Assembly (NCBI GenBank): GCA_000276965.1
Contig: AKKQ01000003.1
Coordinates: 462-64,461 of the forward strand
Source: Thiovulum sp. ES
GTDB taxonomy: Bacteria; Campylobacterota; Campylobacteria; Campylobacterales; Thiovulaceae
Direction of reading: 5' to 3'
DNA length: 64,000 bases
The first letter of the stretch is position 1. Every line of letters starts with the position of its first letter. A program made the position numbers and the translations under genes. The notes beneath the pieces are model-generated. The model searched no databases, was not told the origin of the DNA, and worked only from the letters and a program-made list of their open reading frames with translations. Positions 3,695 through 19,907 of this stretch are shown piece by piece.

Positions 3695-5890
3695 ATGGCA
3701 ACAGCAAAAACAACAAGTGCAAAAGAGAAAGCTTTAGAATCTGCTCTAAAAGAGATCGATAAGAAATTTGGAAAACATACCTTAATTAGAATTGGTGATA
3801 AAGAGATTGAGAAAATTCCGTCAATTAGTACGGGTTCGATCGGACTTGATTTATCATTAGGAATTGGTGGTTTGCCAGTTGGTAGAGTTATTGAGATTTA
3901 TGGACCAGAAAGTTCAGGAAAAACTACACTTTCATTACAAACAATTGCCGAAGCACAAAAAAAAGGTATGCGATGTGGATTTATCGATGCCGAACATGCA
4001 ATTGATATTCAATATGCAAAAAATTTAGGTGTTGATGTAGAAAATTTATATTTATCCCAACCAGACTACGGAGAACAAGCTTTAGAAATTACTGAAACAA
4101 TGGCAAGAAGTGGTGCTTTTGACCTCATCGTTATCGATTCCGTTGCGGCACTTGTTCCAAAAGTTGAGATTGAAGGAACAATTGAAGATCAGCAAGTTGG
4201 TGTTCAAGCTAGATTAATGAGTAAAGCACTTCGACGACTCGCTTCAGTTTTACACGATATGAATGCGACTGTGATTTTTATAAATCAATTACGACAAAAA
4301 ATAGGTGTTATTGGTTACGGGTGTTTCCATCATGACACACTTTTAAATTTTGCAGATGGTCGTTCACTTCCAATTGGTGAAGTTGTTGATAATAAAATTA
4401 AAGGTGAAGTTTTTTGTATCAATGAAAAAACAGGCGAAATCGAAACAAAACCTATTACAGCTTGGCACGATAATGGCAAAGTTGAAAAACATGAAGATTT
4501 TATACATTTCCAAACTCAGTCAATTAATGGTAGAGATAGATTTGGTTTTACAGCAACTCGAAAACATGAAATTCTTACAGATAGTGGATGGAAAACGGCA
4601 GAAGAAATTAGCTTTGAAGATAAATTAACTTCTAAATATTTAGAAACAGCGAATGGAACTTATGGGGAATTTTTAAGAGGTGTTTTTGTTGGAGATAGCA
4701 GAATTTCGATTAGAGATAAAAATACCGCAAATTTAAGACTTCAAGATAATTCAAATGCAGACTATGTAAATTGGAAACTTGATAAGTTGCAAAAATTTCT
4801 AAATTTCAATGAGTTGAAAGTTGAAAAAGGTTATCGATATGATTCTGAATTCAGTTATGAATTTGCAAAAATTAAAAGAGAACTTGGCGAACAAGATCCA
4901 ATTTATATGCTGGAAAATTATTCTCCTTTAAGTTTGGCAGTTTGGTATATGGATGATGGAAGCTACTATTCTGAAGACTATCACAGCAGAAGTGCTATTT
5001 CAATTGGACGATACAGAAATCAGACTCAAAAATTAAATGAGATTTTAGAGATTTTTAAATCTAAAACAGGCATTGATGAGGTAAGTATTCAAGATTCAAA
5101 ACTTCAATTTACAAAAAATGGAACAGATAAATTGGCAGAAATCATTTCAAAATATGTTCCCGACTCAATGCAATATAAATTGCCTAAAGATTTTAGAGGA
5201 AAATATGTTGATTTTGAACTAGAAAACAGTCCAAAATTGGTAACAGATTTTGTTGAAATTAAAGAGATTAGAGAAGCTTCTGACAGACAAATGAGAAATA
5301 AACGAAAATTTGATATTTCCATTGCGGACAACAAAAACTATATGGTTGGTGGTTCTCAAAATGGTGTAATTGTTCATAACAGTAACGAAACTACGACAGG
5401 GGGGAATGCACTTAAATTTTATGCTTCTATAAGACTCGATGTGAGACGAATTGCCAGTTTAAAAAATGGCGATGATATTATCGGAAATCGGACGAAAGTT
5501 AAAATTGTAAAAAACAAAGTTGCACCTCCTTTTAAAATTACTGAATTTGACATTATTTTTGGAAAAGGTGTTAGTAAAGTTGGTGAAGTGGTTGATTATG
5601 CCGTTAAATTTGATTTCATCGAAAAAAGTGGAGCTTGGTTCAGTTACAACGACAGAAAAATTGGACAAGGTCGAGAAAATGCGAAAAAATTTCTACTAGA
5701 TAATCCTGAAGTGATGAAAGAAGTCGAAGAAAAAGTTATTGCAAAATTGAAACCTGCTCCTGAAGAGATGAGTGAAGCTGAGAAAAAAGAGGCAATAAAA
5801 GAGAATGTTGATGAAACTTCAGAAGAGAAACCAAAAAAGACAACTCGAAAAAGAGCAACTAAAACAGAAGAAAAAAGTTCGGAAGAATGA
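3695..5890 (+). CDS. recA: Recombinase RecA interrupted by an in-frame intein (the extein totals about 378 aa and has a Lys/Glu-rich C-terminal tail)
   Basis: 731 aa. Walker A is GPESSGKTT. It also has FIDAEHA and [15 protein letters not shown] | intein | [23 protein letters not shown]...[12 protein letters not shown]. Confidence 0.95.
4322..5380 (+). mobile_element. RecA intein (353 aa) with a LAGLIDADG-type homing-endonuclease core
   Basis: Starts with the Cys codon TGT at 4322-4324, directly after ..GVIGYG. Ends ..GVIVHN (AAC 5378-5380), followed by Ser (+1). Block-B-like TRKH is present. LAGLIDADG-like motifs are [11 protein letters not shown] and [11 protein letters not shown]. Block F/G is [25 protein letters not shown]. 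The frame was checked against the recA start. Confidence 0.9.
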
Positions 5891-10803: not shown

Positions 10804-12399
10804 TTAATAATCTCGATCTCTTCGGTCTCTTCTGTCCCGTCGATCTCTTCTGAATCCACCATCACGGTCATCACGACGATTTCCACCTCGATATCCGCCT
10901 CGATCACCACCGCCATCACGACTGCCATCACGACCGCCATCACGACGATTTCCGCCTCGGTAGCCACCTCGATCACCACCGCCATCACGATGATTGCCAC
11001 CTCGGTATCCGCCACCACCTTTTCGGTAGCCACCTCGACCGCCTCGATCTCTACCACCACCGTGCGAACTATATTTTTTAATTCGTTCGATGTCATCAAG
11101 AGTCTTTCCAATTATATCAGAACCTCGGATTTTATAATCTTCAGCGATAATTGAAGCGAATTTATAAAGTAGTGTTTTGTCATCATACTCATTCTCAAGC
11201 ATAGTAACAAGTGTTGTTCCATCATCAGAATTTTCAGTCTCTTCAACTCTACTTGCAAAACTCTCCATTTTTTTCTCTCGAACTTCTGAGATATTTGGAA
11301 TTACTTTTGTAATAAGTTTTGAACCTGTGCTTTTTTCGATTTTTTGAAGACTTCTATACTCTTGCGGAGTAATAATTGAAACTGCAAATCCGTCTCGACC
11401 AGCTCGACCAGTTCGTCCAATTCTATGAACATAACTTTCGCTATCAAAAGGAATGTGGTAGTTGAAAACATGAGTTACATCAGAAACATCAAGTCCTCGA
11501 GATGCAACATCAGTCGCAATTAAGATTTCACCATCTTTACTTTTAAAGTCTCGAATTACAGCTTCTCGAACTCTCTGTTCAATATCACCGTGAAGTGCTT
11601 TTGCTGAAAAACCTTGAGAATTTAAAATTCCTGCAACTCTATCAACTTCTCTTTTTGTTCGGCAGAAAATAATAGATTTTGTTGGGTTTTTGTAATCGAT
11701 AAGTCGAACAAGAGCTTCGTCTCTCTCTCTCTCTTCAACAACATAGTAAGATTGTGTAATATTATCGTTTGTTACTTTGTCTTTTGTGATTGAGATTATT
11801 TTTGGATCAACAAGGAATTGCTCAGAAAGGTTTCTGATTTCATGTGGCATTGTTGCTGAAAAAAGTAGAGTTTGTCTCTCAGATGGCATGTAAGAGAAAA
11901 TCTCTTTAATATCGTCAAGGAATCCCATGTCTAACATCTCATCAGCTTCGTCAAGAATGAGAGTTTTTGGAGAAATATTTATCGGGTCTGTAACCTTACC
12001 TTTGATGAGGTCAAGTAATCTTCCTGGAGTCCCAATAACAATTGATGCATTTTTAATATGATCCAATTGTCTTTTATACGAAGTTCCTCCGTAAATTGTA
12101 GCTGTTCGAATTCCTAAACTTCGACCGAATTTAAAAATTTCATCACTAACTTGAACAGCAAGTTCTCTTGTTGGAACAACAATTAGGGCTTCAACTTGCC
12201 CATTTAATTCTAAATTTGATAATACTGGCAATCCAAATGCTGCAGTTTTTCCTGTTCCTGTGTGTGCCTGTGCAACGACATCTTTTCCCTCTAAAACGGC
12301 AGGAATTGCTTCGATTTGAACCGGACTAGGCTCTACAAAACCAGCTATCTCTACTGCCTTGAAAACTTCTTGTTTTAAATTAAATTCTTTAAAATTCAT
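10804..12399 (-). CDS. DEAD-box ATP-dependent RNA helicase with an RGG/RD-rich C-terminal tail
   Basis: 531 aa. Q motif and Walker A (AHTGTGKTAAF), DEAD box (LDEADEML), SAT, HRIGRTGRAG. The last 90 aa or so are GGRDRGGRGGYRKGGGGYRGGN...RRDRRDRRDRRDRDY. Confidence 0.9.
   Translation of the reverse strand: MNFKEFNLKQEVFKAVEIAGFVEPSPVQIEAIPAVLEGKDVVAQAHTGTGKTAAFGLPVLSNLELNGQVEALIVVPTRELAVQVSDEIFKFGRSLGIRTATIYGGTSYKRQLDHIKNASIVIGTPGRLLDLIKGKVTDPINISPKTLILDEADEMLDMGFLDDIKEIFSYMPSERQTLLFSATMPHEIRNLSEQFLVDPKIISITKDKVTNDNITQSYYVVEERERDEALVRLIDYKNPTKSIIFCRTKREVDRVAGILNSQGFSAKALHGDIEQRVREAVIRDFKSKDGEILIATDVASRGLDVSDVTHVFNYHIPFDSESYVHRIGRTGRAGRDGFAVSIITPQEYRSLQKIEKSTGSKLITKVIPNISEVREKKMESFASRVEETENSDDGTTLVTMLENEYDDKTLLYKFASIIAEDYKIRGSDIIGKTLDDIERIKKYSSHGGGRDRGGRGGYRKGGGGYRGGNHRDGGGDRGGYRGGNRRDGGRDGSRDGGGDRGGYRGGNRRDDRDGGFRRDRRDRRDRRDRDY
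10871..11008. repeat. Imperfect 69-bp tandem duplication encoding the RGG tail
   Basis: TCACGACGATTTCC begins at 10871 and again at 10940 (period 69 nt). The first 50 nt or so of each unit are nearly identical. They encode RDGGGDRGGYRGGNRRD twice. Confidence 0.7.
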
Positions 12400-14852: not shown

Positions 14853-17800
14853 CTAACTTTCACCAATTCTACTTAAAAATGTATCCCCAAAATCACTCAA
14901 AACATAGAAATCTGTTTCAACTAAAAAATGTCTATTTTCATACCAAAAATAGATAATGAGTTGAAAATTTCCATTAAGCTCTTTTGCAGTTTCTCGAAGA
15001 AGAATCATTTCGCTTTTGTTTAAAAAGAAGTTCAAATTTAAATATGTTTTTCCTCTTTTAACTGTTTCTGTCGTTGGTTCATCATTTTCAATAACTTTTG
15101 GTTCAATATCTTCTTGAGTTTTGCCTTTTTTTAACTTTTTACTTTTTTCGACGACCTCATCGAGAGTAAAAAACTTTTTATAATTAAATTTGACTTCACT
15201 CCCTTCCAATTTAATTAAAGTTCTCATTCCAATCGGTTTTGATAAATCCATCTCTTTTAAAATCTCAATTTCACTCGCAAAGAAAATTAGACTAACTTCA
15301 CCAGAAGTATCTTCAATTTTTCCAATCGAATATGGATTACCAGCTTTTGAAATTTTTTCTTCACCAATATCTACAAAACCGACAAAAACCACTTCTTGTT
15401 CATGCTTGAAATTTACATTATCAATAATTTTAGAAACTTTTTTAAATTCGGAAATCTGTTCTTGAAATTCTTTAAATTTGGAATCTGAAAATTTCTGAAT
15501 TGCATCATCTAAAGAAAAAAACTCTTTGTTTTCCAATTTAAAATTCTCATCTTCTATTTTTAAAGAAGCTTTAATTCCAATTGGTTTTGATAAGTCAAGT
15601 TGCTTTAAAATTTGCATCTCTTTACCAAACATCATAAATTCAAGTTCGCCTGTGAAATCTGATATTTTTCCTTTTCCGTAGAGATTTCCAGCATTTGATA
15701 TTTTTTCCTCAAACTCAACAAAACCAACTAAAAATACTTTTTGCCAATTTTGAAAATCATCTTTTTCTGTTGTTTTTGAGATATTTTTTAATTTGGAAAT
15801 ATCTTCTCGATATTCGTCAAGTGGGTGAGCTGAAACATAAAAATTTAAAACCTCTTTTTCAAGTTCTAATTTTTCTTTCAGTCTATATTCAGTTCGTGGA
15901 ACTAATTTTAGTTCTTTTGTATTTTCGGTGAAATTGTCATCATCTCCGAAAAGTCCCTCGGAAGCACTTTTTTGTAATTTGCCAACTTCACTAGCAAATT
16001 GCACAATTTTCTCAATTTCGTCAAGTAGTGTTTTTCGATTGTAATTCGTTTTGTCAAAACCACCTGCTTTAATTAAGGATTCAAAAGTTCCTTTATTTGG
16101 TTTTACACGATTTAAAAAATCAGGAATATCTTTAAATTCTCCATTTTTTTGAGCTTCTACAATTGTTTCAACTGCACTACCGCCAACACCTTTAATTCCT
16201 TCAAGCCCAAAAAGAACTGCTTCTTTTCCATCTTTTTCAACAATTGAAAAACCTTTTTGAGATTTGTTTATATCTGGAGACAAAATTTCAATACCCATTG
16301 TTTTTGCTTCTTCAACATAAAGTGCAATTTTGTCCATGTTTCGGCTTTCAGTTGAGAGAAGAGAAGCCATAAATTCAGCAGGATAGTGTGCTTTTAAATA
16401 TGCAGTTTGGAAAGTGATCATCGCATAAGCGGCGGAGTGTGATTTGTTGAATCCGTAACCAGCAAATTTTTCGATGAGGTCAAACAGTTCTTCCGCAATT
16501 TCTCTATCAAGTCCCTGTTCTTCAGCACCGTCGGCAAATTGTGATTTATACTCTTTCATCAAATCAATCTTCTTTTTACCCATTGCTCGACGAACAATAT
16601 CTGATTTTCCAAGTGAAAAACCACCAATTTTTTGAACAATTTGCATAACTTGTTCCTGATACACAATCATTCCATAAGTTGGATCTAAAATCTCTTTTAG
16701 CTGTTCAGGAAATTCCTTACCTTCAAATGGATAAAAAATATCTTGTCGTCCATGTTTTCGTTCAACAAAATCGTCTAACATTCCCGCTTCCATTGGACCA
16801 GGTCGGTAGAGAGCAATAAGTGCGATGACATCTTCAAAATTTGATGGTTTCATTCGCTTATTCAAATCTCGCATTCCGCCTGACTCGATTTGGAACATAC
16901 CGATTGTTTTTCCCGCCGACATCATTTCGTAAACTTTTGGATCGTTCATATCGATGTCGTGCCAAACAATGTCAATATTTTTGTGTTTTTTAACCAAATC
17001 AATCGCACCAAAAATTACATCAAGTGTTTTTAAACCAAGAAAGTCAAACTTAATTAAATCAACATCTTCCAAATAATCAAGCGAATATTGGGTAACAAAG
17101 TCGCCCTCTTTTGAAAGGTGAAGCGGTGTTTTATTCCAAAGTGCCTCGTTTGAAATTACAAGTCCCGCTGCATGAATTCCTGTATTTCGTTTAAGTCCTT
17201 CTAGCTTTTCAGAAATATCCCAAACTTTTTGCAAATCAGGATTATTTTGTAGCGAGTCTGTGATTCTTGGCTCACTCTCTTTTGCTTTTTTCAGTGTAAT
17301 TTTTAGCTCTTCAGGAATCAATTTCACAAATTCATTCACAATTGGTAGCGGAATATCAAAAACACGACTCACATCTCGGATTACTCCTTTTGGCAAAAGG
17401 GAACTGAAAGTTGTAACTTGTGCTACATTTTCCCGTCCATATTTTTCCTGCACATAGCGAATAATCTCTTTCCGTTTGTTTTGTGCAAAATCCATATCAA
17501 TATCAGGCATTGAGACCCGTTCAGGATTTAAAAATCTCTCAAAAAGCAAATCATATTTTAGTGGATCGATGTCGGTGATTCTGAGAGCAAAAGCAACAAG
17601 CGAACCTGCTGCTGAATTATGAACCGTGTAATTTGTTGTTGTGTATGAGTGATCGTCTTTCACTGAAAAATCAAAAACTTCTGTTTTCTTCTTTGGGATT
17701 TTTGTGATTTTTCGAACTTTTAATTTAATGTGATCATCAAAAGTTTGATACTCTTCTTCATTGGAAGCAAAATGTGATTTTAAAACATATATATTATCAA

Positions 17801-19907
17801 GCACCTCAATAGATACTGGTTTATATGTGGATAACAAAAGCATTCTTGTATATTCAGCAATCTCTCTTTCTCTAAAAAAAAGTTCTAAATCTTCTGTACT
17901 GTTTGTATCACACATATTCTCAATATTATTACTTTGCCCTAATAACATATATAAAATGTTATTTTTTACTTCACTTGTTAAGCTATTTAATAAATTAAAT
18001 AAAGTTTGAACATTATTTTTCTTGAAAAATGAGAAAAGTATTCTGTCTTGAATTATAAAAGTCTCTTTATCTTTACTAAAAGCTCTATAAACTTTATAAC
18101 CCATTTCCAGTAAATAAATACCTAAATATCTTGACATAGAGCTACGATTTAAAACTAAATTAACAGTTTTATGCTTTTCATTTAAATAGCCATTGTATAT
18201 ATAATATATTATTAATTCAGCTAATAAATCTTTTCTAATATACCTTGAAACACCTCTTTCTGTTCGTCCAAAAAGTTCTACATCATCAAACTCTTCAACA
18301 GGTTCAAAGCTGTTTGATTTCTCATTGTAATTAAAAATTACAACTGGTTTTATAAAAATATCATTTTTGTAAAAAATTCTCTCTTTAATTAATTCAAAAT
18401 CACTGTCATCATAAAAATTTAATAAATCAAATTTGATGTCATCTGAAGTATCTTCCAAATATTTTGGAATTGGTTGAAAAAGACAATCTTTTTCAGTTAT
18501 CTCTTTTGCTTCTTTCCACTCACCATTTCCTAAATAGACTTTATGATCTCCAGTTAAAACAATTGGATTTACAAAATCTCCGTAAAAAGTCTCAATTTTA
18601 TAAAGCTCTTCTTCTATTTCATATTTGAAAGTTTCTAAAACTTCTTTTTCTCGGTTTTTGTGGCTTATGACAATATCGCCAACCTGAACCTCATCGATAC
18701 TTTTTTGAGTGAAACCAAATCCATCTTTTACATAAACTTGAGCTTCTTTTGTCAAACAGCCACGACCTGGTCCAACTGGAATATTTGTTTCACCAGAATA
18801 ACGGACAAAGTCCCAAACGATCAACATGTATCCTGGAAACTTCATACTATTTATAGTATTTATTTCGTGTTCAAGTCGGTCTCGATATTTTTGATGTTCC
18901 TCTTCTGGCACAAATTTTAATCGCTCTTCCAAACCTCTCCGAGACTGTTCAGTAAAAAGAACAGCATCATTTTCAAACGAAAATCTCTCCTCTTTTTGTG
19001 GAAGTTCTAAATCTATCTCTTTTGCATATTCAAGTGTGAATTTAAAATTTGGTGGAGTCGGATTTCCTAAATTTAGTTTCAAGTTGCATTTGTCAGCAAT
19101 CACATTTGTATTTTCAACTGCTTCAGGAATATCTTTGAAAACTTTTTCCATATCTGCGGGAGACTTGATAAAAAACTCATGAACAGTATGTCTCATTCGT
19201 TTTGGGTCGTTCCAAGTTTTTCCTGTTCCAATTGCCATATAAACTTCGTGAGCTTCAGAATCTTCTGCATTTGTATAGTGAGTGTCATTTGTCGCGACAA
19301 GCTGGATTCCCGTCTCTTTTGAAAGTCGGATGAGGTCGTTGTCGATATTAAATTGGTGTCCAATTCCGTGTCGCATAATTTCCAAATAGAAATCATCTCC
19401 GAAAATCTCTTTGTATTCTAAAGCAACTTTTTTTGCTTCTTCATACCCTTTTGAGCCTCTTTCCCGATTTTTATCACTCTGATTTAAATGAAAATTTACT
19501 TCACCAGCAAGACATGCAGAAGTGCAAACAAGACCTTCACTCCGCTCTTTCAACATTTTTTTTGGAATTCTCGGTTTGTAATACATATTTTCAAAAGCCT
19601 GAGAAGACAAATACATCAAATTTTGGTAGCCGACCTCATCTTTTGCATAGAGACAGAGGTGAAATATACCTTTCTCTTTCACTCCAAAATCGTGATTTGT
19701 TACATAAGCCTCCATTCCAATAATTGGCTTAATTCCTTCTCGACTCATTGTTTGATAAAAATCAATTGCACCGAACATATTTCCATGATCGGTGATTGCG
19801 ACGGAACTCATTCCAAGCTCTTTTATCTTTTTTGCCACATTCTTAATTTTGTTTGCACCGTCAAGTAAGGAATAGTCGGTGTGAAAATGGAGGTGTGTGT
19901 AACTCAT
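14853..19907 (-). CDS. dnaE: DNA polymerase III alpha subunit DnaE interrupted by an in-frame intein and carrying a duplicated C-terminal segment
   Basis: 1684 aa. It has an N-terminal PHP domain (HLHFHTDYSLLDG) and PVGPGRG | intein | SAAGSLVAFAL..PDIDMDF. The remaining conserved pol III alpha core runs through ..GYGFNKSHSAAYA. Confidence 0.95.
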   Translation of the reverse strand: MSYTHLHFHTDYSLLDGANKIKNVAKKIKELGMSSVAITDHGNMFGAIDFYQTMSREGIKPIIGMEAYVTNHDFGVKEKGIFHLCLYAKDEVGYQNLMYLSSQAFENMYYKPRIPKKMLKERSEGLVCTSACLAGEVNFHLNQSDKNRERGSKGYEEAKKVALEYKEIFGDDFYLEIMRHGIGHQFNIDNDLIRLSKETGIQLVATNDTHYTNAEDSEAHEVYMAIGTGKTWNDPKRMRHTVHEFFIKSPADMEKVFKDIPEAVENTNVIADKCNLKLNLGNPTPPNFKFTLEYAKEIDLELPQKEERFSFENDAVLFTEQSRRGLEERLKFVPEEEHQKYRDRLEHEINTINSMKFPGYMLIVWDFVRYSGETNIPVGPGRGCLTKEAQVYVKDGFGFTQKSIDEVQVGDIVISHKNREKEVLETFKYEIEEELYKIETFYGDFVNPIVLTGDHKVYLGNGEWKEAKEITEKDCLFQPIPKYLEDTSDDIKFDLLNFYDDSDFELIKERIFYKNDIFIKPVVIFNYNEKSNSFEPVEEFDDVELFGRTERGVSRYIRKDLLAELIIYYIYNGYLNEKHKTVNLVLNRSSMSRYLGIYLLEMGYKVYRAFSKDKETFIIQDRILFSFFKKNNVQTLFNLLNSLTSEVKNNILYMLLGQSNNIENMCDTNSTEDLELFFREREIAEYTRMLLLSTYKPVSIEVLDNIYVLKSHFASNEEEYQTFDDHIKLKVRKITKIPKKKTEVFDFSVKDDHSYTTTNYTVHNSAAGSLVAFALRITDIDPLKYDLLFERFLNPERVSMPDIDMDFAQNKRKEIIRYVQEKYGRENVAQVTTFSSLLPKGVIRDVSRVFDIPLPIVNEFVKLIPEELKITLKKAKESEPRITDSLQNNPDLQKVWDISEKLEGLKRNTGIHAAGLVISNEALWNKTPLHLSKEGDFVTQYSLDYLEDVDLIKFDFLGLKTLDVIFGAIDLVKKHKNIDIVWHDIDMNDPKVYEMMSAGKTIGMFQIESGGMRDLNKRMKPSNFEDVIALIALYRPGPMEAGMLDDFVERKHGRQDIFYPFEGKEFPEQLKEILDPTYGMIVYQEQVMQIVQKIGGFSLGKSDIVRRAMGKKKIDLMKEYKSQFADGAEEQGLDREIAEELFDLIEKFAGYGFNKSHSAAYAMITFQTAYLKAHYPAEFMASLLSTESRNMDKIALYVEEAKTMGIEILSPDINKSQKGFSIVEKDGKEAVLFGLEGIKGVGGSAVETIVEAQKNGEFKDIPDFLNRVKPNKGTFESLIKAGGFDKTNYNRKTLLDEIEKIVQFASEVGKLQKSASEGLFGDDDNFTENTKELKLVPRTEYRLKEKLELEKEVLNFYVSAHPLDEYREDISKLKNISKTTEKDDFQNWQKVFLVGFVEFEEKISNAGNLYGKGKISDFTGELEFMMFGKEMQILKQLDLSKPIGIKASLKIEDENFKLENKEFFSLDDAIQKFSDSKFKEFQEQISEFKKVSKIIDNVNFKHEQEVVFVGFVDIGEEKISKAGNPYSIGKIEDTSGEVSLIFFASEIEILKEMDLSKPIGMRTLIKLEGSEVKFNYKKFFTLDEVVEKSKKLKKGKTQEDIEPKVIENDEPTTETVKRGKTYLNLNFFLNKSEMILLRETAKELNGNFQLIIYFWYENRHFLVETDFYVLSDFGDTFLSRIGES
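17616..18758 (-). mobile_element. DnaE intein (381 aa); the endonuclease core appears degenerate
   Basis: Starts at Cys384 (codon at 18756-18758, minus strand) right after GPGRG. Ends ..NYTVHN (Asn codon 17616-17618), followed by Ser. Block B is LTGDHKV. Block F/G is VFDFSVKDDHSYTTTNYTVHN. The central region has only weak LAGLIDADG-like strings (LLAELIIYYIYNGYL) that lack the acidic residues. Confidence 0.85.

Follow-up and report, generated by a model that had tools for sequence, protein, structure and literature searches.

The window analysed here, a stretch of 64,000 nucleotides of contig AKKQ01000003.1 from Thiovulum sp. ES, contains a dnaE gene that carries a long in-frame insert within a highly conserved motif of the polymerase. 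We aimed to establish what kind of element this insert is, whether it is likely to be spliced out, and which of the following alternatives applies to its large central part: the centre could be a homing endonuclease that still works, a decayed remnant of one, or a domain of another origin.

In the model of the homing cycle, an intein invades an empty site and becomes fixed, its endonuclease then decays, and finally the element is lost. Goddard and Burt in 1999 and Gogarten and Hilario in 2006 are said to have described this cycle and inteins with degenerate endonucleases.

Structure of the dnaE gene and position of the insert

The dnaE gene (14853..19907, minus strand), identified in the list of open reading frames and by Pfam, encodes the alpha subunit of DNA polymerase III as a precursor of 1684 aa, intein included, with the PHP, DNA_pol3_alpha, DNA_pol3_finger and HHH_6 domains. 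The N-extein (aa 1-383; 18759..19907, minus strand) ends with ...IPVGPGRG and shows 65.6% identity to the metagenomic relative P0124, described below. The C-extein (14853..17615, minus strand), delimited by the open reading frame and the junction coordinates, starts with SAAGSLVAFAL, the first Ser being the +1 residue. Between them lie the 381 aa of the intein (DnaE aa 384-764; 17616..18758, minus strand), assigned to class 1 and recognised by Pfam Intein_splicing. The preliminary description had placed a 381-aa intein at GPGRG/SAAGS, with CLTKEAQVY... following GPGRG and ...SYTTTNYTVHN preceding SAAGSLVAFAL; its limits are exact and both junction sequences were verified.

Excision of the 381-aa insert in silico rejoins GPGRGSAAGS, and the corresponding motif GPGRGS[AG]AGS is uninterrupted in 113 of 129 proteins, a set consisting mainly of the 120 best DnaE matches. 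According to the alignment to E. coli chains, the junction VGPGRG/SAAGS is equivalent to G363/S364 of the E. coli Pol III alpha, where the Asp pair is 401/403. It is situated in the Gly-Ser motif of the palm domain, beside the polymerase active site, the catalytic PDIDMDF following in the C-extein 37 residues downstream. No second dnaE or polC was seen within the window. For the purposes of annotation, the dnaE product should be read as the spliced protein of 1303 aa.

Novikova et al. (2016; PMC4760082) report 116 Pol III alpha inteins from nine phyla, including Proteobacteria, with insertion points a-g clustering in the catalytic domains; points a-d and g form a hot spot located in the fingers, the inteins at point a being split without exception. 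The intein of the window shares its host protein with the cyanobacterial split DnaE intein and with the other Pol III alpha inteins, but it is contiguous and is located in the palm at G363/S364, whereas the hot spot described in that paper is in the fingers. In our literature search G363/S364 was not matched to a published Pol III alpha insertion point, although it may correspond to one; the same search, which was limited, brought up no published intein for the dnaE of any Campylobacterota.

The splicing domain

The insert matches Pfam Intein_splicing (PF14890) with 45.1 bits, compared to the cut-off of 35.8 bits (E=1.2e-11). The N-terminal splicing (Hint) lobe (intein residues 1-99; 18462..18758, minus strand) comprises block A, CLTKEAQVYV (18729-18758, minus strand), and block B, LTGDHKV (intein residues 68-74; 18537-18557, minus strand). 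The C-terminal splicing lobe (intein residues 338-381; 17616..17747, minus strand) comprises block F, VFDFSVKDDHSYTT (17637-17678, minus strand), and block G, NYTVHN (17616-17633, minus strand). The residues of class-1 splicing, that is, C1, T69-G-D-H72, D363, H370, H380-N381 and S+1, are present, and all of them are invariant in P0124. Thus, the splicing blocks listed earlier (Cys1, LTGDHKV, the terminal His-Asn and the +1 Ser) are all found, and block F and NYTVHN can be added to them. The interpretation of the insert as an intein is fully supported. At 381 aa, with approximately 240 aa between the lobes, it is larger than a mini-intein, which consists of the lobes and a short linker (about 130-200 aa) and lacks a nested domain; the 228-aa intein of P0124 comes nearer to that form. 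It is also one continuous open reading frame, unlike split inteins, whose halves are encoded by separate genes, each with its own start and stop.

The N-terminal and C-terminal lobes are 66.7% and 70.5% identical, respectively, to those of P0124, compared to 62-67% for the exteins, so that splicing and the polymerase are under equally strong purifying selection. In a third lineage (locus L009), 24 of the 37 residues compared in the C-terminal lobe are identical. From the conserved residues, and from the lobe identity being equal to that of the exteins, we infer that the intein splices. The likely course of splicing can be read from the same residues. Translation would yield the 1684-aa precursor; Cys1, aided by Thr69 and His72 of block B, would perform the N-S acyl shift at Gly383-Cys384; the resulting thioester would be attacked by the +1 Ser, forming a branched ester; cyclisation of Asn381, aided by His380, would free the 381-aa intein; and the final O-N shift would create the GPGRG-SAAGS peptide bond of the active 1303-aa polymerase.

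The central region

The region between the lobes consists of three parts. The first one (intein residues 100-169; 18252..18461, minus strand) shows no relation to any family, is absent from the 228-aa intein of P0124, and gives neither a Pfam signal, not even as a fusion with an anchor sequence (see below), nor significant similarity to the central remnant of that intein. It contains a LAGLIDADG-like string, the third in the intein, FDLLNFYDDSDF (residues 110-121), that bears acidic residues.

The second part, half 1 (residues 170-254; 17997..18251, minus strand; GC content 22%), has local similarity to the remnant and contains the degenerate motif LLAELIIYYIYNGYL (residues 178-192; 18183-18227, minus strand), with Asn189 at the position of the catalytic Asp/Glu. 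The third part, half 2 (residues 255-337; 17748..17996, minus strand), is the positional counterpart of the remnant and contains the degenerate motif NNILYMLLGQSNN (residues 266-278; 17925-17963, minus strand), with Gln274/Ser275 at the motif end and no acidic residue. The motifs end with ...IYYIYN189-G and ...MLLG-Q274-S275, and hence carry no Asp or Glu where LAGLIDADG helices would have one, in agreement with the earlier remark on weak LAGLIDADG-like strings lacking the catalytic acidic residues. Neither half has a Pfam signal of its own, and there is no significant similarity between them.

The proposed check of the centre with LAGLIDADG and HNH profiles was performed with the centre taken alone, fused to a strong LAGLIDADG sequence (an anchor that carries the query past the HMMER filters), or arranged as tandem copies, and no match to these or to any other family was obtained, while both positive controls did match (the recA intein of the window, LAGLIDADG_2, 1.8e-9; a terminase intein, LAGLIDADG_3, 1e-9). 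As tandem copies inflate chance families in shuffled controls, this variant served solely to address LAGLIDADG, which had been specified in advance. Pfam, NCBIfam, PHROGs and PDB contained no family, endonuclease or otherwise, that matched the approximately 240 aa; in PDB, neither sequence-based nor profile-based searches with the centre gave anything relevant, and among 1.84 billion representative proteins phmmer returned no real homologue, only two spurious repeat proteins. A home-made LAGLIDADG half-domain HMM (approximately 0 bits) and hhalign against a small LAGLIDADG set (probability 0.1%) yielded nothing, both being without power, and the homologue search made for building LAGLIDADG profiles returned no sequences. 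The AlphaFold single-sequence models (pLDDT 35 and 47) did not have the quality needed to reveal a fold, such as the pseudo-dimeric alpha-beta-beta-alpha-beta-beta-alpha one of LAGLIDADG enzymes. The Foldseek comparison of these models with PDB, which gave nothing significant and placed I-CreI at rank 41 (E=0.66), therefore carries no meaning.

Within the gene, the AT content is highest in the centre, where GC accounts for 22-25%, compared to 29-31% for the lobes and 33-37% for the exteins. With such composition, 244 codons should include about 24 stops, and the other five frames contain 11-41; the absence of the expected stops indicates that the open frame across the centre is maintained, as the essential extein downstream requires. 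There are only two His and one Cys in the centre.

Relatives and distribution of the intein

The relative P0124 (locus L010; ENA ERZ27236675, contig k127_55073), with 72% extein identity near the junction, has an intein of 228 aa at the same site, with a single central remnant of approximately 85 aa; the difference in the centre length is 153 aa. The lobes of the two inteins are 67-70% identical and the exteins 62-67%, whereas the centres retain 27-31%. Given the latter value, synonymous sites are saturated between the two centres.

The remnant matches Pfam LAGLIDADG_3 with about 10 bits, below the cut-off of 22.5 bits. When fused to the anchor, it appears as a third LAGLIDADG_3 stretch, adding 10.4 bits in both orders (shuffled controls, 0/8), and in tandem it gives about 10 bits per copy at LAGLIDADG_3 profile positions 30-64. 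The remnant is weakly similar to both halves of the window centre. For half 1 (blastp E about 0.005) the alignment score was reached by 10 of 2000 shuffles; for half 2 it was reached by 15 of 2000, the blastp value (E=1e-22) coming from an alignment that extends into the C-terminal lobe. Strings of a hydrophobic helix followed by Gly, as well as L-L-E-x-G-(I/Y) lobes, recur in both halves and in the remnant. These observations, that is, an approximately 10-bit match in one relative and alignments at p about 0.005-0.008, point indirectly, via the remnant, to LAGLIDADG ancestry of the window centre.

The third lineage is represented by a fragment (P0006, locus L009) comprising only the last 45 aa or so of the intein before the contig end. 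Its contig is full of frameshifts, and the final 36 or so intein residues are preceded by AGGAG and stops in all frames. P0124 and L009 share with the window intein the site, the Hint family and the blocks, e.g. DDHS(Y/F)TTTNYTVHN.

At one more locus, L001, on scaffold_226 of sample SAMEA4470836 from ANDE17-1, dnaE has a stop after intein residue 108 or so, at the endonuclease insertion point, and is followed by an unrelated AAA+ open reading frame; no separate gene for a C-terminal half of this intein was found. We considered a split intein here and rejected it, since L010 is 100% identical to L001 over the first 1447 nt and yet goes on as a contiguous intein, and the two genes that meet at the L001 junction both seem to be truncated.

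The survey of empty and occupied sites, also proposed earlier, showed that most related DnaE sequences, including the nearest relatives, have an empty site, so that the distribution is patchy. A word-indexed search of 5.8 billion proteins with the whole intein yielded one cluster only, and no match was observed in the scanned genome and viral contigs. In the metagenome scan only unrelated inteins sharing the EWKEAK string came up, residing in a terminase, an RHS toxin, GyrB, PolB and one multi-intein open reading frame.

Origin and fate of the central region

The dnaE intein is probably spliced and immobile, with a degenerate LAGLIDADG-derived core. In full, we consider it likely that the element is an intein of class 1, splicing in cis, that has become fixed in the essential dnaE gene of what would be a Campylobacterota-like bacterium, the centre being an eroded LAGLIDADG endonuclease and the mobility having been lost. 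The centre (approximately 240 aa) would sit where endonucleases are canonically inserted in the Hint fold, as the remnant of a two-lobed homing endonuclease that formerly spread the element into empty dnaE alleles. Its acidic metal-binding residues would have been lost (Asn189; Gln274/Ser275), and it would now drift under AT mutation pressure, with selection keeping just the open frame and a splicing-compatible shape. As removal of the element without cell death needs a precise deletion, it may persist by vertical descent, homing being lost. The 228-aa intein would represent the next stage, reached by an in-frame loss of about 153 aa. The apparent decay of the endonuclease, suggested in the preliminary description, is thus supported by the negative profile searches, by the lack of real homologues in the proteins searched, by this loss in a relative whose lobes are conserved to the degree of the exteins, and by the AT-rich centre; the loss of activity and the direction of decay we infer from the sequences. 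The longer centre in the window could reflect some constraint.

If the centre is inert or decayed but never was a LAGLIDADG domain, its source being instead a nuclease of a different class or some unrelated domain inserted there, one would expect what is seen in the window itself, namely zero LAGLIDADG signal and the hhalign value mentioned above, and unrelated Pfam families also reach the approximately 10 bits of the relative in the tandem test. However, LAGLIDADG_3 was specified in advance and is the second-best family in that test, with none of the eight shuffles producing it; LAGLIDADG_WhiA also came up; the helix-Gly strings and the L-L-E-x-G-(I/Y) lobes are repeated in the halves and the remnant; and the scarcity of His and Cys argues against an HNH or His-Cys box origin. 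We regard a non-LAGLIDADG origin as unlikely.

A highly divergent homing endonuclease that still works, with non-canonical or shifted metal ligands, in an intein that is still mobile, has a small chance of being the correct explanation. The centre is of full size, with two motif-plus-lobe units 85 residues apart, which is roughly the canonical spacing; acidic residues are present near each motif, candidate ligands being, for example, the Glu after NGYLNE and NNIEN or the Asp residues of FDLLNFYDDSDF; and the patchy distribution among related DnaE implies past mobility. Conversely, the two strings have Asn and Gln/Ser, respectively, at position 8 of the motif, and profiles of endonucleases give no signal even with the filters bypassed. 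The sister lineage tolerates a centre shortened by 153 aa, the conservation of the centre relative to P0124 is far below that of the lobes, and its composition has drifted towards AT. Active homing should also leave close copies, whereas no real homologue came up among the 1.84 billion proteins searched.

There is a slim chance, slightly below the previous one, that the centre is a functional but unrecognised nuclease or DNA-binding module, or that the intein family also exists as a naturally split dnaE. The split variant, to which the stop in L001 and the AGGAG and stops ahead of the intein end in L009 could point, would, if true, provide a matched pair of contiguous and split inteins in a bacterial replicase outside cyanobacteria.

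Co-option of the centre, as a non-catalytic DNA- or protein-binding module or as a sensor of redox state, temperature or DNA damage gating the maturation of DnaE, is very improbable. It would explain why the centre is kept at full length in the window lineage, and inteins cluster at the active sites of replication proteins, hence the regulatory proposals (PMC4760082). However, the centre is not conserved between the two lineages and is mostly deleted in the sister one, its drift in composition fits neutrality, no sensor-like sequence feature is present, and the sole Cys besides Cys1 in the N-terminal lobe and the centre is not conserved in the relative. Finally, the possibility that the insert does not splice, dnaE being a disrupted pseudogene or the insert being kept in the mature protein, is practically negligible, as all the catalytic splicing residues remain intact and are shared by the lineages, neither extein is truncated and both are conserved, and an unspliced insert splitting a motif beside the polymerase active site should leave the protein inactive.

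Under the preferred explanation, an eroded LAGLIDADG core in a splicing intein, the element fits the decay phase of the homing cycle: the splicing parts would be kept, the endonuclease would be shrinking, and related hosts carry the element patchily. With their 381 and 228 aa, the two forms appear to represent successive stages of decay, and may serve to illustrate this phase by showing, within a single family, how an endonuclease erodes in nature. Compared to known degenerate inteins, this one is the same in kind, the lineage being new and the site possibly so, but the loss of signal is unusually complete for a centre that is still full-length. Such complete-looking decay of the core is normal for inteins late in their life cycle. 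The observations add a new lineage of DnaE inteins, in Campylobacterota-like bacteria and at the palm Gly-Ser motif; their practical value is modest, and no new biological question is opened. With about 143 aa and Gly(-1)/Ser(+1) junctions, the splicing core defined here could be tried in protein engineering.

The recA intein and the abundant 8-mer

The window also contains recA (3695-5890, plus strand), whose intein of 353 aa (4322-5380) lies about 12 kb from that of dnaE. The RecA intein of M. tuberculosis is a bacterial class-1 intein with a nested LAGLIDADG homing endonuclease. Both inteins of the window have the same layout: an N-terminal Hint lobe (approximately 100 aa) is followed by a central domain, located at the canonical insertion point, and then by a C-terminal lobe (approximately 45 aa). 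Each possesses Cys1, TxxH, His-Asn and a +1 nucleophile, and each interrupts a conserved motif of a replication or repair enzyme. The centre of the recA intein matches LAGLIDADG_2 (1.8e-9) and retains both Asp motifs (VGDS and MDDG), whereas that of the dnaE intein has neither the match nor the motifs. No relation between the two is detectable beyond the Hint fold. Thus, the proximity of two intein-bearing genes, pointed out earlier, is real, but no link between them was found, as the Hint sequences and the endonuclease types differ.

An abundant 8-mer, ACCTCATC/GATGAGGT, occurs in 55 copies in the window, and its presence in the insert, also noted earlier, was confirmed: the single copy, ACCTCATC (18688..18695, plus strand), falls in the N-terminal lobe, where the minus strand codes for ..IDEVQ... 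It is incidental, since one copy per 1143 bp corresponds to the window-wide density.

The dnaE gene and its insert

The dnaE gene (14853-19907, minus strand) encodes a DNA polymerase III alpha subunit of 1684 aa with PHP, DNA_pol3_alpha, finger and HHH_6 domains. Its translation contains an insert of 381 residues (17616-18758, minus strand), exactly at the coordinates proposed in the preliminary description; it lies between IPVGPGRG (aa 383) and SAAGSLVAFAL, begins with CLTKEAQVYV and ends with SYTTTNYTVHN. Removal of the insert restores GPGRGSAAGS, a motif unbroken in 113 of the 129 proteins compared (mainly the 120 best DnaE matches). Against the Pfam family Intein_splicing, the insert scores 45.1 bits (cut-off 35.8, E = 1.2e-11), and, judging by the sequence, a chance resemblance to an intein is ruled out.

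The class-1 intein residue set is complete, comprising the nucleophile Cys1, Thr69 and His72 of block B in LTGDHKV, Asp363 and His370 of block F in VFDFSVKDDHSYTT, His380-Asn381 of block G, and Ser at the +1 position of the C-extein; it includes all the splicing blocks recognised earlier (Cys1, LTGDHKV, terminal HN, +1 Ser). When the junction as it reads after splicing is aligned with E. coli Pol III alpha chains of known structure, the insertion falls between G363 and S364, and the Asp pair of PDIDMDF matches D401/D403, 37 residues downstream. The junction Gly-Ser is reported to be part of the Pol-beta-like palm motif touching the incoming dNTP (Lamers et al. 2006; Bailey et al. 2006), and hence the precursor with the intein retained should be inactive.

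The dnaE intein adds to an already known class. Novikova et al. 2016 (PMC4760082) counted 116 inteins in Pol III alpha, spread over insertion points a-g; most are cyanobacterial, the fingers are the hot spot, and point a holds split inteins. Unlike the latter, the intein studied here is contiguous, and, in a comparison by domain rather than by lettered point, it is situated in the palm and not in the fingers.

Near the C-terminus of DnaE (15093-15752, minus strand; aa ~1386-1605), an OB-fold-like module is duplicated in tandem (QKVFLVGFVEF..DLSKPIGIK.. and QEVVFVGFVDI..DLSKPIGMR..; local alignment score 231). The metagenomic relative P0124 has one copy, and its C-extein is shorter by 93 aa.

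Distribution of the intein

A word-indexed protein search with the whole intein as the query yielded one cluster (representative P0001). The other protein in this cluster, P0124, is a metagenomic DnaE of 1431 aa (ENA, locus L010) whose contiguous intein of 228 aa occupies the identical insertion site; in this sole full-length relative found, all class-1 splicing residues are invariant. The third lineage, P0006 (locus L009), comes from a 3-kb JGI contig full of frameshifts and keeps KLKVKRVKKVSKKLREVYDLD-EDDHSYTTTNYTVHN followed by SAAGS.

A neighbor-joining tree built on C-extein residues 1-200 joins the window protein and P0124 as sisters (72% identity), and P0006 clusters with P0007 and P0008 (76% identity), whose sites are empty. 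The site is also empty in the Campylobacter upsaliensis DnaE cluster and two further close fragments. Thus, the survey of sites suggested in the preliminary description finds them occupied in the window, P0124 and P0006 and empty in close DnaE relatives, so that the distribution is patchy, as is usual for inteins.

At L009 (1-190; JGI 3300003151, Ga0051092_1001519), the contig end leaves just the final ~45 residues of the intein, at the shared site, with stops in all three frames upstream; AGGAG stands 14 nt ahead of a TTG able to start a 36-residue C-intein, which is not interpretable in a frameshifted contig. A related DnaE with an empty site (L011, about 700-800; JGI 3300005095), its gene interrupted by frameshifts, contains a short additional stretch, AKDPSRHLRGDGNKIPVGPGRG, immediately before the motif. 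At L001 (11440-11734; ENA ANDE17-1 scaffold_226), dnaE is 100% identical to that of L010 over 1447 nt and then ends (IDEGG followed by two stops) at precisely the point where the endonuclease is inserted in the intein; the next ORF, situated 280 nt before the contig end, overlaps dnaE by 17 nt and opens directly with a sigma-54-activator AAA+ domain. This junction is probably a chimeric join; less probably, L001 is a real split-dnaE variant.

Selection on the splicing domain and the centre

Between the window and P0124, identity is 65.6% in the N-extein (GC 36.8%), 62-67% in the C-extein (GC 32.9%), 66.7% in the N-terminal lobe (GC 31%) and 70.5% in the C-terminal lobe (GC 29%), and 27-31% in the centre (GC 22-25%), which differs in length by 153 aa. 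Selection on the splicing domain appears to be as strong as on the polymerase, which argues that the intein splices; a non-splicing insert is hardly conceivable given the complete residue set. The centre seems to evolve almost freely, with the catalytic acids apparently lost and a likely in-frame deletion shortening it in the sister lineage. Its 244 very AT-rich codons are open, with ~24 stops expected from composition and 11-41 stops in the other five frames; as an essential extein lies downstream, the open frame is uninformative on endonuclease function.

Origin of the centre

Intein endonucleases are always nested at the position held here by residues ~100-337, according to PMC6801210. For this centre we observed no match in Pfam, NCBIfam or PHROGs at E up to 10, including any LAGLIDADG or HNH family, and none among PDB sequences with a single-sequence or profile query; among 1.84 billion representative proteins there were two matches, both repeat proteins summing weak stretches. 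The controls did match, the recA intein of the window to LAGLIDADG_2 (1.8e-9) and a metagenomic terminase intein to LAGLIDADG_3 (1e-9). Structure modelling and structure search of the centre gave no usable fold. Both motif-like strings, LLAELIIYYIYN-G and NNILYMLLG-QS, lack the acidic residue, as initially noted.

Since weak matches are masked by HMMER filters, the terminase endonuclease (41.8 bits unfused) was used as an anchor to which test segments were fused. With the centre of the window intein, whole or in parts, the LAGLIDADG_3 score was 37.8-39.9 bits (2 stretches), not above the shuffled controls (37.8-40.1 bits, 2 stretches), whereas the ~85-aa central remnant of the P0124 intein gave 50.2 bits (3 stretches) in both orders, against 39.7-39.9 bits (2 stretches) for its eight shuffles. 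Four tandem copies of the remnant scored 40.9 bits, TDLSLARELKIVLLETGIPASLKKVDDKYQ matching profile positions 30-64 (estimated p roughly 0.005), a value valid only for the pre-stated LAGLIDADG hypothesis, as tandem copying also yields chance families at similar scores. The remnant aligns with residues 255-337 of the window intein, continuing into the C-terminal lobe (E = 1e-22); for the centre portion alone, E is about 0.006 (score reached by 15 of 2000 shuffles), and for residues 170-254 about 0.005 (10 of 2000). These two halves show no significant mutual similarity.

The most plausible reading of the centre is an inactivated homing endonuclease, most likely of LAGLIDADG origin, and the intein would then be at the decay stage of the homing-cycle model. 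The decayed endonuclease of the preliminary description is thus supported, the evidence for LAGLIDADG ancestry of the centre in the window intein being indirect and its inactivity presumed. There is a small chance that the domain decayed from another origin, consistent with the centre of the window intein scoring like shuffled controls; the remnant points to LAGLIDADG. An endonuclease still active and diverged beyond recognition is improbable, and a co-opted binding or regulatory module is more improbable still: P0124 has deleted part of the centre, and no centre is conserved between the lineages.

The recA intein and other features

The only other intein within the window is that of recA (3695-5890, plus strand), 353 aa at 4322-5380 (GVIGYG/CFHHDTLL...GVIVHN/SNETTTGG). 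Its Hint sequence differs from that of the dnaE intein, its GC content is 30.5% against 35.1% in the recA exteins, and both Asp motifs are retained in its centre (FVGDS, YMDDG), so that its endonuclease looks I-SceI-like, apparently intact and potentially active. Both genes do host inteins, as had been noted, their closeness having no demonstrated meaning.

The 8-mer ACCTCATC/GATGAGGT occurs in 55 copies in 64 kb (26 plus, 29 minus), about every 1.2 kb, and is the sole non-AT-rich word among the most frequent 8-mers of the window; with flanks it widens to roughly (G)ACCTCATC(G). It resembles a signal word used across the genome, of the DNA-uptake-sequence type or of another. The copy reported inside the dnaE intein is indeed there (18688-18695), at background density. 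Finally, a DEAD-box helicase (10804-12399, minus strand) has a long Arg/Gly-rich C-terminal repeat tail (GGRDRGGRGGYRKGGGGYRGGN...RRDRRDRRDRDY).
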